UHGV virus genome: UHGV-1451962
Strand: one strand, 5' to 3'
Source of the DNA: a virus
DNA: 64,000 nucleotides
In this document: positions 5,317 through 38,897 of the stretch, one piece after another
Layout: each line of letters begins with the position of its first letter
How positions within the stretch are numbered: position 1 is the first letter of the stretch
Translations under genes and position numbers: made by a program
The notes under the pieces: model-generated
The model's database searches: none
Told to the model about the DNA's origin: nothing
What the model saw: only the letters and a program-made list of their open reading frames with translations

Positions 5317-8300
5317 ATGGCTAAAAGACTTAATTATGAAGTAGGCTTTACTGGCGATACTTCACAATTAAAAGCGTCTTTAAATGATGCTGTAAAAGCT
5401 TTACAAAAATTAGGTACTTCTTCAACTACTCAAATGACTCAGGGTATGCGGGAAGCATCTAAATCTGCATTAGAATTAGCTAATAATTTAAAAACTGCTA
5501 CTAATCAAGAAACAGGAAAATTAGATTTAGTAACTTTTAATAGAAATTTAGCTAATAGTAAGATGACCATTAGTGATTATGCTAAGCAATTATCTCAATT
5601 AGGCCCTACTGGTCAGCAAGCTTTTATGAAAGTTGCGCAAGCAGTTACTTCTGCGGAATTACCAATGAGACGTACTAATAAAGTATTGGATGAATTGTGG
5701 ACAACAATGAAAAATACTGCTCGTTGGCAATTAACCTCAAGTGCGTTGCATGGATTTATGGGAGCTTTAAATACTTGTGTTGGATATTCTAAAGCTTTAG
5801 ATAAATCTTTAAATTCTATCAGAATTGTTACTGAACAATCAGCTGAACAAATGGCTGATTTTGCAGTTCAAGCTAATAGTGCTGCAAAAAATTTAAGTAC
5901 AACAACAACAGATTATACGGATGCAGCATTGATATATTATCAACAAGGTTTAAATGACAAAGAAGTTCTTGATAGAACTGATATTACTATTAAAATGGCC
6001 AATGCCGCAAATGAAAGTGCTCAAGTAGTTTCTGACCAATTAACTGCGGTTTGGAATAACTTTTATGATGGTTCACAATCATTAGAGCATTATGCTGATG
6101 CGATGGTGGCGTTAGGTGCTGCTACTGCTTCTAGTTCAGATGAAATTGCTGGCGGCTTAGAGAAGTTTGCATCAATCGCAGACATGATTGGGTTAAGCTT
6201 TGATTATGCTGCTTCTGCTTTAGCAACAATTACTGCTACAACTCGTCAAAGCGAAGATGTTGTTGGTACTGCTTTGAAAACTATTTTTGCTCGTATTCAA
6301 GGTTTGAATTTAGGAGAGACCCTTGAAGATGGCACTGATTTAAATAAATATTCAGAAGCTTTGAGCAAAGTTGGTGTTTCAATTAAAGATTCTAATGGCG
6401 ATTTGCGTAATATGGATGCTATCTTAGATGATATAGGCGCAAAATGGGGTACTTTAACAAAAGACCAACAAGTAGCATTAGCGCAAACAGTAGCCGGCGT
6501 TCGTCAATACAACCAGTTAGTTTCTTTAATGGATAATTGGGATTTCTTTGAAGATAATTTAAAGATTGCCCAAAATTCTGAAGGTGAATTAAATAAGCAG
6601 GCTGATATTTATGCAGAATCTTGGGAGGCCGCGAGAAAAAGAGTTAAAGCTGCGGCAGAAGATATTTATGATAGCATTTTGAATCCTGAGAGCATTGTTG
6701 CTATTGATGATGTTTTAACTCCATTTTTAAGTGGAATAGCGCAAGTTGTTAATGCTTTAGGTGGATTAAAAGGTATTGCTTTAGTTGTTGGTTCTGTCCT
6801 TACTTCTGTTTATAGTGGTAAATTGGTAAATGGTTTACAAAATTTTGCTACTAATATTCAGATTATGACTGGACTTCAAGGAAAATTAACAAGAAGCTTA
6901 CAAGAACAAACCGTAACTGAAGCAGAAAATCTTGATATTATAATTGGTGGTAATCGTGCTTTAGAAACTGAAATTTCTTTGATGCGAGAAAAAGTTCAGT
7001 TACAAGGTATGATTAATAAATATACCAAGAATTATGACCAAAGTCAAATGTTACAAGTCAATCAGCGAGTAGGCGTTATTGATGCTTTGCGTCAACAAAT
7101 TATGGCTTCTGCTCAAAAACAAACTGCTTTGTTGGGTGAAGCTGAAGAATTTAAAACAACTATATTGTTAGATATAGAGCCAAAACCTGGTTGGGAAGAA
7201 AGATTTAGACAGAAAATTTTACAATTTAATACTAATATGGTTAATGGGCCATTAAAAAATCTTAATTCTGTCTTTTTATTTGATGAAAAAGATGATATAA
7301 CAAGAACTACTGAAAAAGTTACAGCAAGTATGCAAAAGTTAGCTTCTCAAGCTAGTTCTATAGAAGCAGTAAGACGAGCTTATAGCAATTTAAATATAGA
7401 TCAAAAAGAAAGTGCCGTTGTTTTACAAGAATTAATTCAAAAGACTGGTTTATGGAAAGCAGAAATGCAAAATTGGTCTACTCCTAAATTACAAGAATTT
7501 TTGAATAACTTAGGTACTCAATCAATAGAAGCTTCTAAAGGGATGCAACTTTTAAAACAAGCTTTAATGGAATTAAGTTATTCTCCTGAAGCTATTGATC
7601 AATTTATTAATTCGATAAGAAGATTAGCCGCTGAAGAACATAGTGCCGCAGAATATACAAGATTAATTAATGAAGAAATAAAAAAATTTACGAACAGTTT
7701 GCAAACTGGTAGTATTCAAAGTGAATCGGGTTGGGCAAAAACTGTTGTAAGCATGTCTAATCATCTTATGAATTTCGGAATGACTCTTTCCGCAGTTAGT
7801 AATATGGGTAAAGTTTTCAAAGAATCTATGGAAGGAAATATTACTGCGGGAGAAGCTTTCATTCAAATTATGACTAATTTGGGTATGATTTTGATGAGTG
7901 GCAGTAGCCTTTTCATGGCTTTGTCAAAATCAATGGGTGCTCTTGTTTCAGTTTATACTGGTGTAAATACTTCAGTAGCAGCTCTTACTTTTGTTACAAA
8001 ATTAAATACTGCGGCTGAAGAAGGAAATATAGCTGCAAAAATAGCTAATGTTGCAATTACAAAATTGCTTACTGTTTCAGAAGGTAGTTTAGCTGCTGCT
8101 ATGGGTATAACTATTGGCGTTTTAGCTCTTTTTGCGGCTGGAATTGTGTTTGCTGTAAAAATAATTGATGGTTTAATTGTAACTCAAAAAGAAGCCAGTC
8201 AAGCTATTGCGGATGCTACTCAAAATTATACTGATCAAAAGAGCAAATTAGATGAGTTAAATAGTTCTTTAGAGCAAACTAGACAAAAGATAGAAGAATT

Positions 8301-26243: not shown

Positions 26244-26263
26244 AGAATAAGATATTCTTTTCT

Positions 26264-26297
26264 AAGGGGAAGATTTTATTCTTCCCCTTATGTTTTA
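26264..26297 (+). terminator. rho-independent terminator (weak T-run)
   Basis: Stem aaggggaaga / tcttcccctt with 6-nt loop followed by atgtttt. Confidence 0.4.
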
Positions 26298-26916: not shown

Positions 26917-26929
26917 TAAAAATAAAATG

Positions 26930-26962
26930 GGTAAGAGCTAAATGCTCTTACCCATTTTTTTG
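26930..26962. terminator. bidirectional rho-independent terminator at strand switch
   Basis: Stem gggtaagagc / gctcttaccc with 5-nt loop; T-run on plus strand and U-rich flank on the minus strand; lies between convergent genes. Confidence 0.6.
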
Positions 26963-27402: not shown

Positions 27403-28051
27403 ATTTTAATTCTATGGCTTTAATTTCCTTATAATTTTTAGCAGTATAAATTTGTGTTTTATATTGTTGCATTTTTTTATAATAAGGATAAACAAAATCA
27501 GAAATAGCTAAAGCTAAAGCAGTCAAATTTTCAACTGTCCAAGATGTACATTCTTCTTGGCGAGCATGCCATTCTAATCTAGGATTCTCTGCTCCAGCCT
27601 GAACTGCCATAGAATATTGATTCATATTTAGGCTAATTTCTGATTGATCTTCTTCTGTAACTCCATATTGCTTTCCATCAATCCAAGTCAAAGGATTATT
27701 AATGAGGAAATTAGCGAAAGCTTTTTTATTTTCTTCTTGTTTCATTTTTTGATATTCTTCTAAAGAATAGTAATATGTTAATTCATTTTTTTCATTATCA
27801 TATTTATAAAAATTAGGTTCATAATCTTCTGGAATATTACCATCAAAAGATAAGATTCTTACTGCATCAATAGAACCTGTCATATCTGAATTAGCCAAAA
27901 TGAAATGGCTATTGCAATCTGAGCCTATTACTCCTGTAGCTTCACCTTCCGAGCAAGCAATGACAATACTTGGGTTGGATTGTAATTTGATGTAGCGGAT
28001 TTCCGCAAGGATATCGACTACTATATTTTCTCTATTGATTAATAAATACAT
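27392..28051 (-). CDS. hypothetical protein, translationally coupled to the DGR reverse transcriptase
   Basis: 219-aa ORF whose start overlaps the RT stop by 1 nt; no recognisable motif. Confidence 0.4.
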   Translation of the reverse strand: MYLLINRENIVVDILAEIRYIKLQSNPSIVIACSEGEATGVIGSDCNSHFILANSDMTGSIDAVRILSFDGNIPEDYEPNFYKYDNEKNELTYYYSLEEYQKMKQEENKKAFANFLINNPLTWIDGKQYGVTEEDQSEISLNMNQYSMAVQAGAENPRLEWHARQEECTSWTVENLTALALAISDFVYPYYKKMQQYKTQIYTAKNYKEIKAIELKYEN

Positions 28052-29307
28052 TATAATATTTCAACTCCTTTAAATAATGAATGGAAATAATTATCAAGAT
28101 TTTGTATAATATAAAAAGTAGTACCTTTATTTATATGTTCTCTAAAACCTCGATATGATTCTTGAATTTCTATATCAGTTATTTTACCTTGTAGCCAAAG
28201 TTGGTGCATTTTTCTCATTTTTCTATATTGTCGCTTTATTTTCTTTTTAAATGGAGTTTGAATAATTTTATTCGTATTAGTTAAATAAAAATCCCATTTT
28301 AAATATTTAAATGGATTATGTTTATCCGAACGTCTTTTATGAGGATAATTATTTTTATCTAGTTTTATTGGACTAATTTTAATTATTTTAGTTTTTCTTT
28401 TGTTACATTTTAAATGTATTTTATTTAATTCATTTTCAATTTTATTAAGACATTCTTTTAAATAATCTTTGTCATTATGCAAAATATAAATATCGTCCAT
28501 ATAACGTCCATAATATTTTAAATGCAAATGCTCTTTTGCATAATGGTCAATTCCATTTAATGCCAATAAAGCTAATAATTGAGATGCTTGACTACCTAAA
28601 CCTAAACTTTTATGATTAAATTCATAATAAGTACAATTTTTATAAAATTGTTTAGGATAAATTATCTTATATTTTTGTTTTTTGATGATATAGTATTGTT
28701 TATTAGGAATAGGAACTGTATCTTTTGTGACTGAAAAACAAAAGGTATCAATAATATAATCAATTAATTTAAATACTCGTTTTTCTTTAATATAATGTTT
28801 TGCCATTTGCTTTAAAGAATTATGGTCTATTGAATCAAAAAATTTTTGAATATCAATTCTTAAACCATAAAAAGATTTTCCTAAACCATATGTTCTGTGC
28901 GCTGCTTGTAAATGTTTACGCACTTCTAGCAAAGCAAAATCAATTCCTTTTCCTTTTAATGTAGCACAATTATCATAAATAAATTTTGGAGTTAGTTCTG
29001 GAATAAGAACTTGCGAACATAATGTATTTTGTGCCAATCTGTCATAAATATGGCACGCTCTTATATCTCTGGGTTTGCCCCGCTCAATTATACTAAAACT
29101 GTTAAAAACTAATTGTTCATAACTGTCATTTTCTAATTGTTCTTTAAGCGTTAAGATGTTATTTAATCTATTTTCTTCAAAATTAACTGTACTATCTTTC
29201 CATCTTACGTTTCGGCAAATAGAATAAGAAGAATCATAAAAAGCGTCAAAATTACAAAAACGCTGGAAAAGATTTTCTTCTATAAAAAATTCTCCTTTTT
29301 TTATCAT
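28051..29307 (-). CDS. DGR-type reverse transcriptase
   Basis: 418 aa; RT motif 2 (GLRIDIQKFFDSIDH), DGR-type motif 4 (GLGSQASQ = GxxxSQ), catalytic YMDD (YGRYMDDIYIL); lies directly downstream of the TR in the canonical target-avd-TR-RT order. Confidence 0.85.
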   Translation of the reverse strand: MIKKGEFFIEENLFQRFCNFDAFYDSSYSICRNVRWKDSTVNFEENRLNNILTLKEQLENDSYEQLVFNSFSIIERGKPRDIRACHIYDRLAQNTLCSQVLIPELTPKFIYDNCATLKGKGIDFALLEVRKHLQAAHRTYGLGKSFYGLRIDIQKFFDSIDHNSLKQMAKHYIKEKRVFKLIDYIIDTFCFSVTKDTVPIPNKQYYIIKKQKYKIIYPKQFYKNCTYYEFNHKSLGLGSQASQLLALLALNGIDHYAKEHLHLKYYGRYMDDIYILHNDKDYLKECLNKIENELNKIHLKCNKRKTKIIKISPIKLDKNNYPHKRRSDKHNPFKYLKWDFYLTNTNKIIQTPFKKKIKRQYRKMRKMHQLWLQGKITDIEIQESYRGFREHINKGTTFYIIQNLDNYFHSLFKGVEIL

Positions 29308-29588
29308 GCGGTGCTAGATTGTGTGCTCTGACACGCACATCCGCAATCTTAATTAATTATCTGTATAGATAAAAGGTTAAATTCTCCTTAAATGAAAGCT
29401 ATCTATTATAATCTAAGTCTTTTATTTAATATTTCCTCTCCTTCTTGGTTTTAAAACCAATGCGTCCAGAAAATACCAAAATAGATGAGTTATAACATAG
29501 GTTATAATTTTCTGGGGTAACACTTAGTCGTCTCAGTCGATGTCGCCTGCGGCTCCATCACCAGAGACAGTTAGAGTTCTCATCTAAT

Positions 29589-29693
29589 CGGGCGCGAGGT
29601 AATTGTTGTTGTTGTAGTTGGTATTGTTCGCATTACCATCAGAGTTGACATTGCACACATTGTTCGTGTTGTTCGAGTTGTAGTAGCGAGACC
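29589..29693 (-). repeat. DGR template repeat (TR)
   Basis: About 105 nt, 84/105 identical to the VR; 20 of 21 differences lie at plus-strand T (adenine on the transcribed minus strand); non-coding, between the Avd-like ORF and the RT. Confidence 0.85.
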
Positions 29694-29726
29694 CGCGATA
29701 TTTTAGAATTTAACCAAATAAAAAAA

Positions 29727-30191
29727 TTATTTGTATCGCTGAGAATAAATTAGATTATCTCTATTTATTCTATCAAGAAGATTTTGTTTTAATTTGTAAG
29801 TAAGTTTAGCAACATATTTGAAAGATTTATTTTTCTTTTTATTATTTAACCCATATTCATAAATACATAAATCTAATTGCCTTAAAATTGAATCACAATA
29901 TCTTATTGATTTATTAAAGTAATCTGCTCTTTCAACTAAAGTTTTTTTATTTTTTAGATTGATTAAACTAGCAGAGAAAGCATATCCATGTGCGTTTTTG
30001 GCACATTTTAAAATATCTGCACCAAAAGCTGAATAATAGTATGGATTACCAAGAATACCTGGTTTAATATGAGAACCATCATCTAATTCTTGATATGGAC
30101 GAACTAAAATTAATACTTGATGGACTAACTTTCTTGCATCATTTAAATAATCATTTTTAGATTGATGCCTATCTTTTTTTCTTACTGACAA
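29727..30191 (-). CDS. avd: Avd-like accessory variability determinant (putative)
   Basis: 154-aa basic (Lys/Arg-rich) ORF with TTG start after aaaggagg, placed between VR and TR as Avd is in known DGRs; assignment by position and composition only. Confidence 0.5.
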   Translation of the reverse strand: MSVRKKDRHQSKNDYLNDARKLVHQVLILVRPYQELDDGSHIKPGILGNPYYYSAFGADILKCAKNAHGYAFSASLINLKNKKTLVERADYFNKSIRYCDSILRQLDLCIYEYGLNNKKKNKSFKYVAKLTYKLKQNLLDRINRDNLIYSQRYK

Positions 30192-30225
30192 ATTAAAAAC
30201 CTCCTTTAAATAACGTACAAGAAAT

Positions 30226-30254
30226 ATTATACCAGAAAATTTTTAAAAAGTCAA
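30226..30254 (-). promoter_or_regulatory. sigma70-like promoter for the avd-TR-RT transcript
   Basis: On minus strand: TTGACT, 17-nt spacer, TATAAT (exact consensus -10), preceded by an A/T-rich UP-like tract; about 35 nt upstream of the avd TTG start. Confidence 0.5.
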
Positions 30255-30315
30255 AGAAAAAAAATTTTTAGAAAAAATTTTTTTCCCAGAAAAGGTGAAA
30301 GCATTTTTATACTAT

Positions 30316-30341
30316 GGCATTGGCCCTTTTGGGCCAATGCC
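30316..30341 (-). promoter_or_regulatory. GC-rich hairpin 3' of the VR (candidate DGR target-recognition hairpin)
   Basis: Perfect 11-bp inverted repeat ggcattggccc / gggccaatgcc with 4-nt loop, about 30 nt downstream of the target-gene stop; no U-run on the minus strand, so it is not a canonical terminator. Confidence 0.5.
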
Positions 30342-30369
30342 AATATAACCTTACTGTATAACTTTACAG

Positions 30370-32154
30370 TTATCCAATAACGAAAGCGGGCGCGAGGTAA
30401 CGGTAGTTGGCGTAGTAGGTAAAGTCCGCACCACCATCAGAGTCGACACGGCACACATAGCCCGTGTAGTCCGAGTAGTAGTTGCGAGACCGCTCCCAAT
30501 ACCATTTGGAATCTCCTGAACTGTTACCATTAGCATCTTGAATGTTTTTTATACGGGAGCTGTCACTTGTGTAATAATCATAAGCAGCATTATATCCTTT
30601 AGTACATTCTGCATTGGAAACAGTAGAATTAGCAGTGCTGATTGGAGAATAACTATCTAATCCCATTTCTCTCTCAGAAGGAATCCAAACAGTTTCGTTA
30701 TTATAACTAACATTAGCACTTCTATTATCATCCCAATTATCGCAAGTACCTTTAGATACTGTTTTTATAGATGCTTTAGCAGCACAAGCATTATAAAAAT
30801 TTTGACAATAACTTCTAGCATTAGAACCAATCCATTGTGCGCTATTATCACCAAAAGTAGTCATATTCGGCAAGAGATAAACACTATGAAAAGCTAAAGT
30901 TTTATCTCCATCTTTGTCATAGCCAATACAACGCATTGTAACAGCATTTGCTCCTAAAACATTAGTAGATAAATTCATCTTTTTAGTTTTACCAACTAAA
31001 GCTTGACGTTCTGAAGCAGAAGAATTGTTAAGCCAAGACTTTAAGCCAGCCCACCAAGAAGCATCTCCCGCAGCACTCTCATTTCCCCAAGTCCAATATG
31101 TAGCAGTAGCAGTAATTTTTTTATTCGCGGGAGTTGTATAATTGGTACTGGCTGCTATTGATACAGTAATAGTAGCAGTTCCCGCGGTTGTACCATTGCC
31201 TTTAATGGTAATTGTTTTACCGCTTACTGTTGCTGAAGCCACATTAGAATTAGTAGAAGTTACAGAAATTGTACCAGTAGAATTAGTGGTCACAGTAACT
31301 TTTACACCAGTAGAATAATTAGATGCGTCAATAGAAACAGTAGAAGTGCTTAGACTTAATGTTCCTGTTGCTTTTTGAATAGACCAATCAACATTTTTCG
31401 CGGTTGTTGTCTTATCAGGCCATCTGTAATTATTTTTAGGAGTAAAAGTAGCTGTATATTTTCCTGCATTAATTCCCGATGTAGTTCCTCCAATAGTCAT
31501 GTAACTTGTATTATAATTTGACCAATTTGGACTTTGCGAATTGGCGTTATAAGTTAAAGTTCCAGTTTGAGAAGGAATAGGAACTGTTTTTCTTTCTACT
31601 GTTACAGAAAAAGTAGTAGTTTTAGTAATACTATTTTCTGTATAAGAAACAGTAATTGTTTGAGTACCAACTGTATTTAAAACAGAAGGTGAAGTTGTCC
31701 AACCAGAAACAGTAGCGGTTTTACCATCAGAATAAGTGGCAGTAACAGACATTCCGGCAGATTCAAATGTCTCGCCATATTCATAAATTGTCTTAGTTGG
31801 TTTTGTGCTTGTGATGCTGGTTAGTGCATGGATAACAGTAACTGCTTGCTCGGCGGTACAAGTAACTCCTCCTTCAGAGTAAGTAATAGTAACTTTAGTT
31901 ACTCCATCAGTTAAAGGAGAAGGTGTTACAGTATATCCAGTTACCGCAGTAGAAGAAACAACAATATTATCAATGGCATAATTGGCAGTTATAACCATTC
32001 CTGTTGTTTCAAATTCTTGTCCAGCAACGTAAGATGTACGGTTTGGTGGAGTAGTAACTTCAATAGAGTGGAGTGCTATTGAGCTTCCGCCACCTTTTCC
32101 GCCTTGTTCAGTTAAAATGCATTTAACAGGCAAGGTATAAGACCTCCTTATCAA
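30370..32154 (-). CDS. DGR target protein: Ig-like repeat protein with C-terminal lectin-fold-like variable domain
   Basis: 594-aa ORF; tandem Thr/Ser-rich Ig-like segments (e.g. GVTKVTITYSEGGVTCTAEQAVTVIH), then a C-terminal domain containing WIPSEREMGL and the VR; likely true start is the TTG at 32133 (9 nt after aaggagg) rather than 32154. Confidence 0.8.
   Translation of the reverse strand: MIRRSYTLPVKCILTEQGGKGGGSSIALHSIEVTTPPNRTSYVAGQEFETTGMVITANYAIDNIVVSSTAVTGYTVTPSPLTDGVTKVTITYSEGGVTCTAEQAVTVIHALTSITSTKPTKTIYEYGETFESAGMSVTATYSDGKTATVSGWTTSPSVLNTVGTQTITVSYTENSITKTTTFSVTVERKTVPIPSQTGTLTYNANSQSPNWSNYNTSYMTIGGTTSGINAGKYTATFTPKNNYRWPDKTTTAKNVDWSIQKATGTLSLSTSTVSIDASNYSTGVKVTVTTNSTGTISVTSTNSNVASATVSGKTITIKGNGTTAGTATITVSIAASTNYTTPANKKITATATYWTWGNESAAGDASWWAGLKSWLNNSSASERQALVGKTKKMNLSTNVLGANAVTMRCIGYDKDGDKTLAFHSVYLLPNMTTFGDNSAQWIGSNARSYCQNFYNACAAKASIKTVSKGTCDNWDDNRSANVSYNNETVWIPSEREMGLDSYSPISTANSTVSNAECTKGYNAAYDYYTSDSSRIKNIQDANGNSSGDSKWYWERSRNYYSDYTGYVCRVDSDGGADFTYYANYRYLAPAFVIG
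30387..30491 (-). repeat. DGR variable repeat (VR) at the 3' end of the target gene
   Basis: Matches the TR with substitutions almost exclusively at TR adenine positions; encodes the C-terminal ~35 residues (…YYSDYTGYVCRVDSDGGADFTYYANYRYLA…); shared GC-rich 3' boundary cgggcgcgagg. Confidence 0.85.
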
Positions 32155-32250: not shown

Positions 32251-32286
32251 ATTGGGAAAAGGATATAAAAATATCCTTTTCCCAAT
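32251..32286. repeat. perfect 16-bp-arm palindrome in the divergent intergenic region
   Basis: attgggaaaaggatat-aaaa-atatccttttcccaat; flanked at 32199-32210 and 32383-32394 by a 12-bp inverted repeat (aaagtacacctt / aaggtgtacttt). Confidence 0.6.
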
Positions 32287-32424: not shown

Positions 32425-34170
32425 ATGGCTGTTCAATGTGTACTTGTCGGAAAAGGCAAGGATGATGTATTTACTGCTGTTTATGGCGAAACTACATTTG
32501 ATAAAGTGTTAAAAGCTTATAATGAAAATAAAGTAGTTCAAGTGATTTATCAAAATCGTATTTATTATTTAGATAATACTACTGTTGTAGATTCTCCTGA
32601 AGCATTTTCTTTTATTTCTGCTTTTAGTAATCAAAATGATGAAGCTGGTGAAATAAAGCATTATGTAATAAGTTTAATGACAGGAGATAGTTGGTCTGGG
32701 CCTTTCTTACAGAAATCTACTCCAGCAACTCACGCGAATACTCATAGTAAAAATGGTGATGATCCACTTACCCCCGCAGATATTGGAGCTATGGAATTAT
32801 CAGAAAATGTTCTTAAACAATCAAATGAAGATATTACTTCTCAAGTAGCGCAAGCTTTATTTGGGGATTTAGTTCCTTTTAGCGGTGGAACCATGACTGG
32901 TTTGTTAAATGTTCTTACTCCTGTTAGAGATAGTAATGCTACTACTAAAAAGTATGTAGATGATGCTTTGAGTGAGAAAATTGGAATGGATGGCATTGGC
33001 GATTTGCATGTATGGAAGAAGACTATAATAACAAAACAGGAGATTCCAGCAAGTTTTACTTTAGGTGATGTACACTCTGGTTCGTTTCGTTTTGTTAGTG
33101 GTGAAACTAATGTGTTGTTAGTAGGTACTCCTAAAGTTAATGAGAGTGGTGTCGTTACCTTAACAAACTCTGCGCAGTATAATTTTAATTATAATTCTTC
33201 ATCTCCTAGTATATCTGATCTGCGAGGACAGTATTGCATGTTTACCATGATAGCCGATCAATTTTCTAGTTTTACTGCCAATAAAGTTTTTTATATACCC
33301 ACTGATGCAAACTATATTTCTTTATCAAGTTCTAAAAATATTACTAAATATCAAGATGTTAATGGTACACCTAAAATTCCTGCCGAAGTAACTACTACCT
33401 ATCCCGCATCTACTAATCCCAATGCGTATCAAGAGGGGAGCGATGCAAAACCAGCAGGATATGTACTTGGTAATGTGATAACAGGTTCATTTTGTATTGG
33501 TAATACAACAGCACCTACGAGAGCTGCTTATTATGTCGCATCTGATATTTCTGTATCTGATAATGGTGTTTTATCTATTTCAACACAAACAAATATAACT
33601 ATTGGTGGTAATTTTTTTGTATCTAGCCGTGATTTAATTGCTGGTAAATTTATACAAATTTATAATAAAGGGTCTATGTCTTCTGTTTTATCTGAACCAT
33701 TCACAACAGTACCAGGCCCAATTATTTATATTCCGAATGATGTAAACTTAACGTCTGGCGGTGATGGAAATTTAAATTTATATATTGATCGCTACCAACC
33801 TATTACTGGCTACGCTGCTATCCCCGCAGGCACCACTATTGAATATCTGGGGAAGTTGGGAGATAAGACTAGGGTAATAATTGGCTCGTATATTGGGACA
33901 GGGGTCTGCGGGGCAGAGAATCCGACCAAAATAAAAACGAGTTTTTTACCGAAACTTGTAGCAATAAATGGAGTAGGAAATACCGGCAGTACGGGCATTA
34001 TTCTGTTTTTTCGAGATATGAACTATGCGTTCTCAGAAATCGGCTCAAGTACCAACTTTAACTTTACTAATATAACCTGGTTATCAGACGGAGTACATTG
34101 GTATTCTAGCAAAGTCCTTATGCAGGGGAATAAGCAGGGGGCAATTTATAAATACATTGTTATCGGTTAA
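32425..34170 (+). CDS. tail fibre protein
   Basis: 581-aa ORF with RBS (aaaggag); contains the tail-fibre motif FSGGTMTGLLNV and an HANTHSKNGDDPLTPADIGA segment; last ~110 codons are visibly GC-richer. Confidence 0.6.
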   Translation: MAVQCVLVGKGKDDVFTAVYGETTFDKVLKAYNENKVVQVIYQNRIYYLDNTTVVDSPEAFSFISAFSNQNDEAGEIKHYVISLMTGDSWSGPFLQKSTPATHANTHSKNGDDPLTPADIGAMELSENVLKQSNEDITSQVAQALFGDLVPFSGGTMTGLLNVLTPVRDSNATTKKYVDDALSEKIGMDGIGDLHVWKKTIITKQEIPASFTLGDVHSGSFRFVSGETNVLLVGTPKVNESGVVTLTNSAQYNFNYNSSSPSISDLRGQYCMFTMIADQFSSFTANKVFYIPTDANYISLSSSKNITKYQDVNGTPKIPAEVTTTYPASTNPNAYQEGSDAKPAGYVLGNVITGSFCIGNTTAPTRAAYYVASDISVSDNGVLSISTQTNITIGGNFFVSSRDLIAGKFIQIYNKGSMSSVLSEPFTTVPGPIIYIPNDVNLTSGGDGNLNLYIDRYQPITGYAAIPAGTTIEYLGKLGDKTRVIIGSYIGTGVCGAENPTKIKTSFLPKLVAINGVGNTGSTGIILFFRDMNYAFSEIGSSTNFNFTNITWLSDGVHWYSSKVLMQGNKQGAIYKYIVIG

Positions 34171-34534: not shown

Positions 34535-34668
34535 TGTTATATAGAGTTTTAAAAAGAATGATTGAAGCAGGTCAAACAGAAGGCCTGCAAGAAAAAATAG
34601 ATATTTTCTTTGCGGCTGGCCGCATTACCGCAGACCAATACACTGAACTCACTAAATTATTATCATAA
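34534..34668 (+). CDS. small XkdX-like protein (44 aa), absent from the ORF track
   Basis: ATG overlapping the previous stop (taATG); encodes MLYRVLKRMIEAGQTEGLQEKIDIFFAAGRITADQYTELTKLLS, resembling the small XkdX-family proteins found after tail-fibre genes. Confidence 0.3.
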   Translation: MLYRVLKRMIEAGQTEGLQEKIDIFFAAGRITADQYTELTKLLS

Positions 34669-34689
34669 TTCCCAAAATTTTTGGGAATT
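34667..34689. repeat. near-perfect palindrome immediately upstream of the serine recombinase gene
   Basis: aattcccaaaa-t-ttttgggaatt, overlapping the stop of the 44-aa ORF and 42 nt upstream of the recombinase GTG start. Confidence 0.5.
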
Positions 34690-34730: not shown

Positions 34731-35357
34731 GTGAAAAAGGTGTTATATGGTTATGCAAGAGTTTCTTCCCGCGACCAAAATATAGATAGACAAATAATTG
34801 CATTAAAAGAGGTCGGCGTAGAAGAAGAAAATATCTTCATAGATAAACAATCAGGTAAAGATTTTAATAGACCTTCTTATCAAGAATTATTAGAAACAAT
34901 TAAAACAGGAGATATGGTAATTATAAAATCCATAGATAGATTAGGTCGAAATTATTCAGAAATTTTAGAACAGTGGAGAATTATTACTAAAGTTCTGAAT
35001 GTAGATATTAAAGTTATTGATATGCCGTTACTCGATACCTCCTACGGGGATGGTACATTAAATAACTTTATAGCTGATTTAGTTTTACAAATTCTCTCTT
35101 TTCAGGCAGAACAAGAGAGAATTTGTATTAAACAGCGACAAGCAGAAGGAATAGCTGCTGCAAAACAAAAAGGAGTTAAATTTGGCCGACCCCGCAAACA
35201 GCTTCCTTCTAATTTTGAAGATTTATATTATAGATATTTAAATAATGAACCAGTGGATAGATTATCAAAAGATTGTAAAGGATTATCTAAATCTACTTTG
35301 CGGTTGCGACTACAAGAACGTCATTCTAAAGATAAAGCATTGGGTGTAATTATTTAA
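34731..35357 (+). CDS. small serine recombinase (resolvase/invertase family)
   Basis: 208 aa, GTG start after agaggtg; N-terminal catalytic motif YGYARVSSRDQ, then DRLGRN; C-terminal HTH region with GRPRK. Confidence 0.8.
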   Translation: MKKVLYGYARVSSRDQNIDRQIIALKEVGVEEENIFIDKQSGKDFNRPSYQELLETIKTGDMVIIKSIDRLGRNYSEILEQWRIITKVLNVDIKVIDMPLLDTSYGDGTLNNFIADLVLQILSFQAEQERICIKQRQAEGIAAAKQKGVKFGRPRKQLPSNFEDLYYRYLNNEPVDRLSKDCKGLSKSTLRLRLQERHSKDKALGVII

Positions 35358-35819: not shown

Positions 35820-35824
35820 TTAAA

Positions 35825-35862
35825 GGCTCCCTTAGTTTTTCGCTAAGGGAGCCTTTTTTTTT
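35825..35862 (+). terminator. rho-independent terminator
   Basis: Stem ggctcccttag / ctaagggagcc with 7-nt loop followed by ttttttttt. Confidence 0.65.
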
Positions 35863-38545: not shown

Positions 38546-38877
38546 TGTATACAGTAAATGTAAATGGTGAAACATGGACAATAGAATTTGTTTCTTCTTC
38601 TAATTATAATTTAATGAGAAGTGATGGAACTTATACTATTGGAGTTTGTGATGATGAAACTAAAACCATTTATATAGATAAAAATTTAAATAATAGTTAT
38701 TTGCAAAAAGTTTTGTGCCATGAGATAACCCATGCTGCAATGTTTAGCTATGATATAAATTTATCCCTTGAACAAGAAGAATTATTAGCTGATTTATTAG
38801 CAACATATGGAGAAGAAGTAGTACAAAAAGCAAATATATTATTTAAACGTATAAAAGAAAATAGGGGAAGCTATTAA
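38545..38877 (+). CDS. small HExxH-motif protein (putative zinc metallopeptidase-like)
   Basis: 110-aa ORF; contains VLCHEITHAAMF (HExxH); start overlaps the upstream stop. Confidence 0.4.
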   Translation: MYTVNVNGETWTIEFVSSSNYNLMRSDGTYTIGVCDDETKTIYIDKNLNNSYLQKVLCHEITHAAMFSYDINLSLEQEELLADLLATYGEEVVQKANILFKRIKENRGSY

Positions 38878-38897
38878 ATTAGCTTCCCCTATTTTTT
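38861..38897. terminator. bidirectional rho-independent terminator at strand switch
   Basis: Stem ataggggaagct / agcttcccctat with 8-nt loop, T-runs on both flanks; lies between convergent genes. Confidence 0.6.

Follow-up and report, generated by a model that had tools for sequence, protein, structure and literature searches.

A GC-rich, perfectly palindromic hairpin lies just downstream of the VR in an active DGR of a gut phage. By analogy with known DGRs, our leading explanation, held tentatively and at slightly below an even chance, is that the palindrome is the target-side hairpin or cruciform of this DGR and acts by its structure as a retrohoming enhancer. The palindrome itself (30315-30342) is real and far from chance, and the DGR that surrounds it is genuine and active. 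The window, by which we mean the whole 64-kb stretch of DNA analysed here, is part of a ~137-kb gut Caudoviricetes genome in which the DGR adjoins tail-like genes.

Geometry, folding and setting of the palindrome

On the minus strand the cassette runs in the order target gene with VR, hairpin, promoter, a 154-aa ORF in the position of Avd, TR and RT. The features, in that direction, are as follows.

30370-32154, minus strand: DGR target gene, 594 aa from a TTG start, tail-fibre-like with a Big_3 domain, in a tail-gene neighbourhood
30387-30491, minus strand: VR, whose 3' end is the GC block CCTCGCGCCCG (30397-30387)
30365-30386, minus strand: IMH-like segment, the ~22 nt past the GC block, differing from the TR flank (VR CTTTCGTTATTGGATAACTGT, TR ATTAGATGAGAACTCTAACTGT)
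30351-30380, minus strand: weak, imperfect, AT-rich hairpin with a GUAA loop, including the stop codon and the end of the IMH-like segment
30315-30342, minus strand: hairpin core, a perfect 12-bp palindromic stem (TGGCATTGGCCC / GGGCCAATGCCA) with a 4-nt loop
30307-30348, minus strand: extended hairpin, in which a 2-nt bulge separates the 12-bp core from 6 more A:T pairs, folding as DNA (-16.8 kcal/mol) and as RNA
30226-30254, minus strand: predicted avd promoter, near-consensus sigma-70 (TTGACT, 17 nt, TG-extended TATAAT; 11/12 matches)
29727-30191, minus strand: Avd-position accessory ORF, 154 aa, its position kept in all relatives
29589-29693, minus strand: TR, with no comparable inverted repeat after it
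28051-29307, minus strand: DGR RT (RVT_1, E = 7e-15)

The plus strand of the core reads tGGCATTGGCCC-TTTT-GGGCCAATGCCa, i.e., TGGCATTGGCCC-TTTT-GGGCCAATGCCA, with a loop of exactly 4 nt that is TTTT on this strand and AAAA on the minus strand, the sense strand of the target gene. Eight of the 12 stem pairs are G:C in a genome of 30% GC (30.3% in the window), and the flanks are AT-rich. Past the 2-nt bulge, an imperfect extension (TTATAT/GTATAA) brings the structure in 30307-30348 to ~18 pairs. As single-stranded DNA, the 26-mer hairpin folds at -14.1 kcal/mol and 46-mers fold at -16.2 to -16.8 kcal/mol; z-scores range from -5.4 to -6.7, and not one shuffle in 200 matches these energies. Folded as RNA, the hairpin is very stable. 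With up to 3 mismatches allowed, the sequence is single-copy in the window, where the chance expectation is 0; a second full hairpin site is absent from the 64 kb, and half-site matches are marginal only. The exact hairpin pattern has no occurrence across 185,579 species genomes, and its sole match in IMG/VR, inside a collagen-like coding region, was dismissed as chance.

The stem begins 27 nt downstream of the target stop codon (TAA, 30372-30370) and 44 nt past the end of perfect TR/VR identity (30387), or ~22 nt past the end of the IMH-like segment. Because BPP-1 counts the imperfect IMH-like segment as part of the VR, the distance from the VR is 44 nt or ~22 nt according to the definition used. 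We note that a population SNP (T/C, alignment column 38) falls in the internal loop of the weak 30351-30380 hairpin.

The structure is one of the 18 perfect hairpins in the window whose stems reach 10 bp or more. No other stem of the set is as rich in G:C (0.67; the rest lie at 29-50%, none above 0.50), and none has so few T residues in the 11 nt at or after the stem, with 3 in the minus-strand tail (CCATAGTATAA) and 2 in the plus-strand tail (CCAATATAACC). The intergenic terminator-type hairpins of the window carry 6-10 T of 11 on at least one strand and show an A-run/stem/T-run arrangement with lower GC. The U-rich tract that an intrinsic terminator has directly after its stem is absent here on both strands, a terminator scan gives no call at 30315-30342, and this is the sole strong hairpin of the window that lacks a T-run. 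Upstream of the target start, in a divergent intergenic region, a 16-bp-stem hairpin (32251-32286) has a minus-strand T-run and no minus-strand gene to terminate.

These measurements bear out what the original prediction described in the sequence. The inverted repeat it placed at 30316-30341 is indeed perfect, although the stem is 12 bp at 30315-30342 and not 11 bp. The 4-nt loop was recovered, and the distances it gave, about 30 nt from the stop and about 45 nt from the VR end, agree with the measured 27 and 44 nt. Its descriptions of the repeat as strikingly GC-rich for an AT-rich genome and as no typical terminator for want of a U-run both held in the 18-hairpin comparison, and the folding-energy calculation it proposed gave the stable fold described above.

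The remainder of the cassette has the expected parts of a DGR. Over 108 nt, TR and VR share 80% identity, and every mismatch except one is at a TR adenine; the exception lies at ~30480 in the VR and ~29682 in the TR (TR GCTACTAC, VR GCAACTAC), and most other genomes lack it. Both repeats terminate in the GC block TTACCTCGCGCCCG, which occurs twice in the window. Past this block the VR goes on as CTTTCGTTATTGGATAA, the coding end with the stop at 30372-30370, and the TR goes on as ATTAGATGAGAAC. This IMH/IMH*-like divergence is kept in all related cassettes, with a VR-side motif (GCTTTCGTYATTGG) and a TR-side motif (GATTAGAT) kept across clades. The stretch from the TR (29589) to the RT start, scanned for perfect hairpins with stems of 8 bp or more, contains a single one, an A/T hairpin at the RT start itself. 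Gene callers give lengths of 585-587 aa for the target in relatives.

The predicted avd promoter, one of only two such promoters in the window, lies 60 nt downstream of the hairpin and would drive avd-TR-RT. Directly upstream of its -35 element is a pure A/T palindrome (A7T5-TCT-A5T7, 30258-30284) that is length-polymorphic, is partly deleted in one genome (L059) and is probably a UP-element-like tract. Just upstream of the RT start, a structured segment (29308-29360, minus strand) contains GCGG...CCGC in the window and ACAG..GCGG...CCGC..CTGT in one sister locus (L006), with equivalents in two others (L029, L081). It appears to keep its pairing through the sequence changes between clades and is probably part of the DGR RNA 3' of the TR.

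Database searches added little. The 154-aa ORF has no Pfam or PHROG match, a search of 28900-30700 against Rfam gave nothing near significance, and blastn of the 4.4-kb cassette against annotated phage records gave no match. The target protein has no match in IMG/VR, its C-terminus has none in a PDB sequence search, and no second VR or second target was found within the window.

DGR activity and loop inversion in near-identical genomes

The species-level set comprises 14 metagenomic genomes, namely, the window and 13 contigs whose Avd-position protein is identical and whose RT is at least 97% identical; one member (L058/L071) seems to be either the contig of the window itself or a copy identical to it. 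The source metagenomes include ERZ28662716, ERZ28663801 and SRR17335712. The VRs differ in nearly all of the 14, and the TR is almost invariant. Two genomes (L061 and L066) have unrelated VRs even though only 10 substitutions separate them over 5.4 kb. In a third (L026), one G-to-A change within the IMH GC block (CCTCGCACCCG) is present in both repeats (~1805-1817 and ~2598-2610), and TR-VR information transfer thus covers that base. Taken together, the varied VR beside a near-constant TR, the closely related pair and the shared base change indicate that the DGR is active in nature.

All 24 stem positions are identical in 14 of 14 genomes, while the surrounding spacer has 7 SNP columns and A/T-run indels. 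This invariance was rejected as proof of selection, as 16% of the 24-nt windows in the 5.5-kb alignment are equally invariant. The check for compensatory changes that the original prediction had suggested found none: the stem is constant, and RT identities among the relatives drop straight from 97% to 66%.

The loop does vary. In 4 of the 14 genomes (L062, L065, L067, L078) it reads TTTT instead of AAAA on the sense strand, and, with a perfect palindrome, this change is an inversion of the loop. In a neighbour-joining tree of the flanking 5.4 kb the TTTT carriers are not monophyletic and occupy at least 3 separate branches; the flip is thus recurrent or has been moved by recombination. As a control, other perfect hairpins were compared in 11 genomes over 20 kb.

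38858-38895: loop of the main type in 9, inverted in 1, point variant (AATTAA) in 1
26924-26958: loop in one orientation in 9, in the opposite orientation in 2
35822-35856: the two loop orientations in a ratio of about 7 to 3
32251-32286: loop never flipped
26263-26290: loop never flipped
34667-34689: loop never flipped

Three ordinary terminator hairpins flip as well and three others do not, and the loop flip was rejected as a DGR-specific cruciform footprint. The comparison shows that in this phage perfect palindromes are inverted at the DNA level, through the hairpin or its arms. Small, recurrent flip-flop inversion of hairpin loops is thus seen in a wild phage population (loci L071-L080), and the flips imply that neither orientation of the loop is strongly selected against here.

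Gene calls give a truncated RT (328-361 aa) in the TTTT genomes. We rejected this truncation, since the A5/A7/A8/A9 tract behind it lies upstream of the likely true start; A5-allele genomes still diversify, and no significant association with loop state was obtained (Fisher ~0.18). The tract itself (29292-29307, minus strand) sits between the annotated ATG and a GGAG Shine-Dalgarno sequence, varies as A5, A7, A8 or A9 among L026, L060, L061, L069 and L071-L080, and makes gene callers report RTs of 328-436 aa. In sister clades this site contains the in-frame stops TGA TAA, and the real RT start is 7-9 nt past the Shine-Dalgarno sequence. In the window's clade only an in-frame ATA lies past it, an arrangement that suggests a non-canonical start or slippage for the RT of this clade. 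The A7 allele of the window fuses the upstream ATG in frame.

A further variable locus was noted on the plus strand, where a serine recombinase gene (Pfam Resolvase, 34731-35357) adjoins a gene of variable length (32425-34170) that encodes 581-625 aa among the near-identical genomes. In one genome (L075) neither gene is called, and in another (L080) the variable-length gene alone is missing. The locus may encode a tail-fibre end that can be inverted or exchanged; a brief look for inverted repeats that might serve as invertase sites around the recombinase gene gave nothing convincing.

Sister cassettes and known target hairpins

The sister set consists of ~60 loci with RT identities of 57-66%, matching architecture and the IMH-like motif; the RT relatives number 1,639, and none falls between 97% and 66%. 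What follows the VR differs by clade.

L006, L001, L002: spacer of ~100 nt in which the one feature is a tiny AT palindrome (ACTTTCAAAAGT)
L081: nothing convincing
L107, L109: AT stems of 7 bp close to the stop codon
L003-5, L041: nothing convincing
L029: a hairpin of 14-15 bp, unrelated to that of the window, with AATCTCTTTTT (T-run) after it and called terminator-like in the scan

The GC-rich hairpin is thus absent from all sister clades examined, and the VRs of these clades are also diversified, which means that the hairpin is not required by this RT family. The original prediction had named lack of conservation of the stem in homologous cassettes as evidence against a target-site role, and to this extent the sister clades count partly against it. 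Strong hairpins occur in only two clades, the window's and that of L029, both among those whose VR-avd spacer is long, and the L029 hairpin, the only other strong one at the post-VR position, looks like a terminator. The L109 clade has its own promoter-like sequence upstream of avd and no such hairpin. In the most abundant sister clade (L006, L012; ~5960-6000, upstream of the RT match), the RT frame reads TTG AGT TAG TAG TAG ACA TCT TTC GAG after a good Shine-Dalgarno sequence; the three in-frame TAG codons at the RT start suggest amber-codon reassignment in those phages.

Known DGR target hairpins have GC-rich stems of 7-10 bp and 4-nt GRNA loops on the sense strand, lie 4-34 bp after the VR, are missing after the TR and have a role in structure-dependent target recognition (Guo et al. 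2011, PMC3240598). MyDGR applies exactly these rules for stem, loop and distance. In BPP-1, changing the loop from GAAA to CTTT abolishes homing, and of the stem insertions tested (StI2, StI4, StI8) the shorter ones had little effect and the longer ones lowered function (PMC3240598). In a survey of 372 DGRs, high-confidence GC-rich repeats were found in only 34%, with terminator features in a minority (Wu et al. 2018).

The analogy with the Bordetella phage DGR, on which the original prediction relied, stands in several respects and fails in others. As in BPP-1 and other phage and Legionella DGRs, the hairpin belongs to an active DGR of the order target-VR/avd/TR/RT, occurs on the VR side only, beyond the IMH end and between the target stop and the avd-like gene, and combines a GC-rich perfect stem and a loop of exactly 4 nt with the lack of a poly-T run. 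It departs from that type in its longer stem (12 bp, or 18 with the extension, versus 7-10 bp), in its sense-strand loop, which is AAAA, or TTTT in 4 of 14 genomes, and not GRNA, and in its absence from sister cassettes, where the one other strong hairpin (L029 clade) is terminator-like. Like the stem length, its distance is borderline: the 44 nt past TR/VR identity exceed the 4-34 bp of BPP-1-type elements, and the ~22 nt past the IMH-like segment fall within them. Given that loop sequence is critical in BPP-1, the flip speaks against a strictly BPP-1-like reading of the loop and not against a role of structure only.

Two other kinds of element invite comparison. Like intrinsic terminators, the hairpin is a stable stem-loop with a 4-nt loop shortly past a stop codon, and its loop inverts in the population as those of the phage's terminators do; unlike the phage's own terminators, it has no U-tract and no A-run/T-run symmetry, and its stem is 67% G:C versus 29-50%. 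The targets of group IIC introns include terminator stem-loops that are recognized as single-stranded DNA (discussed in PMC3240598). There, too, an RT system uses a DNA stem-loop beside the integration point, the structure is recognized and the loop sequence has little weight, and recognition of this sort would fit the tolerated loop flip. The DGR differs in not being an intron, and in that copying takes place upstream of the hairpin with no insertion downstream.

Candidate roles for the hairpin

A DGR target-site role for the hairpin is plausible. By analogy with BPP-1 and the Legionella DGRs, the palindrome would extrude, as a hairpin or a cruciform, where the DNA is negatively supercoiled or briefly single-stranded, the extruded structure would mark the VR and not the TR as the recipient, and it may make 3' cDNA integration at the GC block more efficient. 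The hairpin probably works through its structure and not through the sequence of the loop, and, since sister cassettes work without it, it would be an enhancer and not a requirement. A more specific proposal starts from the strand-specific loop reading of BPP-1 and would make loop orientation a reversible phase-variable switch, in which AAAA/TTTT inversion by hairpin-mediated template switching toggles the target between homing-permissive and non-permissive states and so controls the rewriting of a receptor-binding protein; of all the ideas considered here we give this one the least credence.

The hairpin may serve in addition as an RNA 3' stem-loop, given that the target mRNA carries it in its 3' UTR and that the avd promoter follows 60 nt later. 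In the main rival explanation this is its only role and retrohoming is left out: the hairpin would be an atypical RNA-level element, i.e., a partial or factor-assisted terminator lacking a U-tract, or a stem-loop that protects the 3' end, and would insulate the late target gene against the avd-TR-RT unit, which has a promoter of its own. The placement, 27 nt past the stop and shortly before a near-consensus promoter, is what such an element would have, and the very stable RNA fold fits as well. So does the restriction of strong hairpins to two long-spacer clades, one of which (L029) has a T-run behind its terminator-like hairpin, and the loop flips just as those of ordinary terminators do, as expected if loop sequence is irrelevant. 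With no U-tract on either strand (2-3 T of 11 versus 6-10), no call in the scan, a stem composition that is an outlier among the genome's terminators, and a clade (L109) that has promoter-like sequence before avd but no such hairpin, we nevertheless consider the RNA-only explanation rather unlikely.

The palindrome could instead be functionless or weakly selected, a by-product of the ~100-nt insertion that brought the promoter into the VR-avd spacer, and kept as the clade is young. Stem invariance no better than background (16% of 24-nt windows), the missing hairpin in every sister clade and the lack of relatives at intermediate divergence (RT 97% to 66%) that could reveal selection would all agree with this. 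Long perfect palindromes are, however, generally unstable unless selected, chance would hardly yield a GC-rich palindrome with a perfect 12-bp stem where the genome has 30% GC (z about -6; 0 matches expected), and this one is placed exactly where a known functional class is expected, which together make such an origin improbable. We regard as highly improbable a site for protein recognition in duplex or extruded DNA, whether as an operator of the avd promoter, an N4-like hairpin promoter for a phage RNA polymerase or a recombinase site. A 28-bp perfect palindrome is atypical for operators, the sequence is single-copy in 64 kb with no second full site and marginal half-sites, and, in the 3' flank of a gene, it has nothing downstream in the right orientation that is without a promoter of its own. 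These points are set against the perfect dyad symmetry 60 nt upstream of a strong promoter, the serine recombinase gene 4.4 kb away and the supercoiling-extruded hairpin promoters described for phage N4.

If the hairpin were only a 3' stem-loop, it would be ordinary. As a target-side enhancer, it would be a variant-loop example of an element type that is already known, one that specialists would find unsurprising. If it works as a DGR target element, it would widen the rules for annotation, as the MyDGR criteria would miss this hairpin, and it would mean that an A4/T4 loop is tolerated in either orientation in an AT-rich gut phage. The natural polymorphism, in which one stem occurs with both loop orientations beside many independent VRs, offers a ready comparison for the question of whether the loop matters outside Bordetella.
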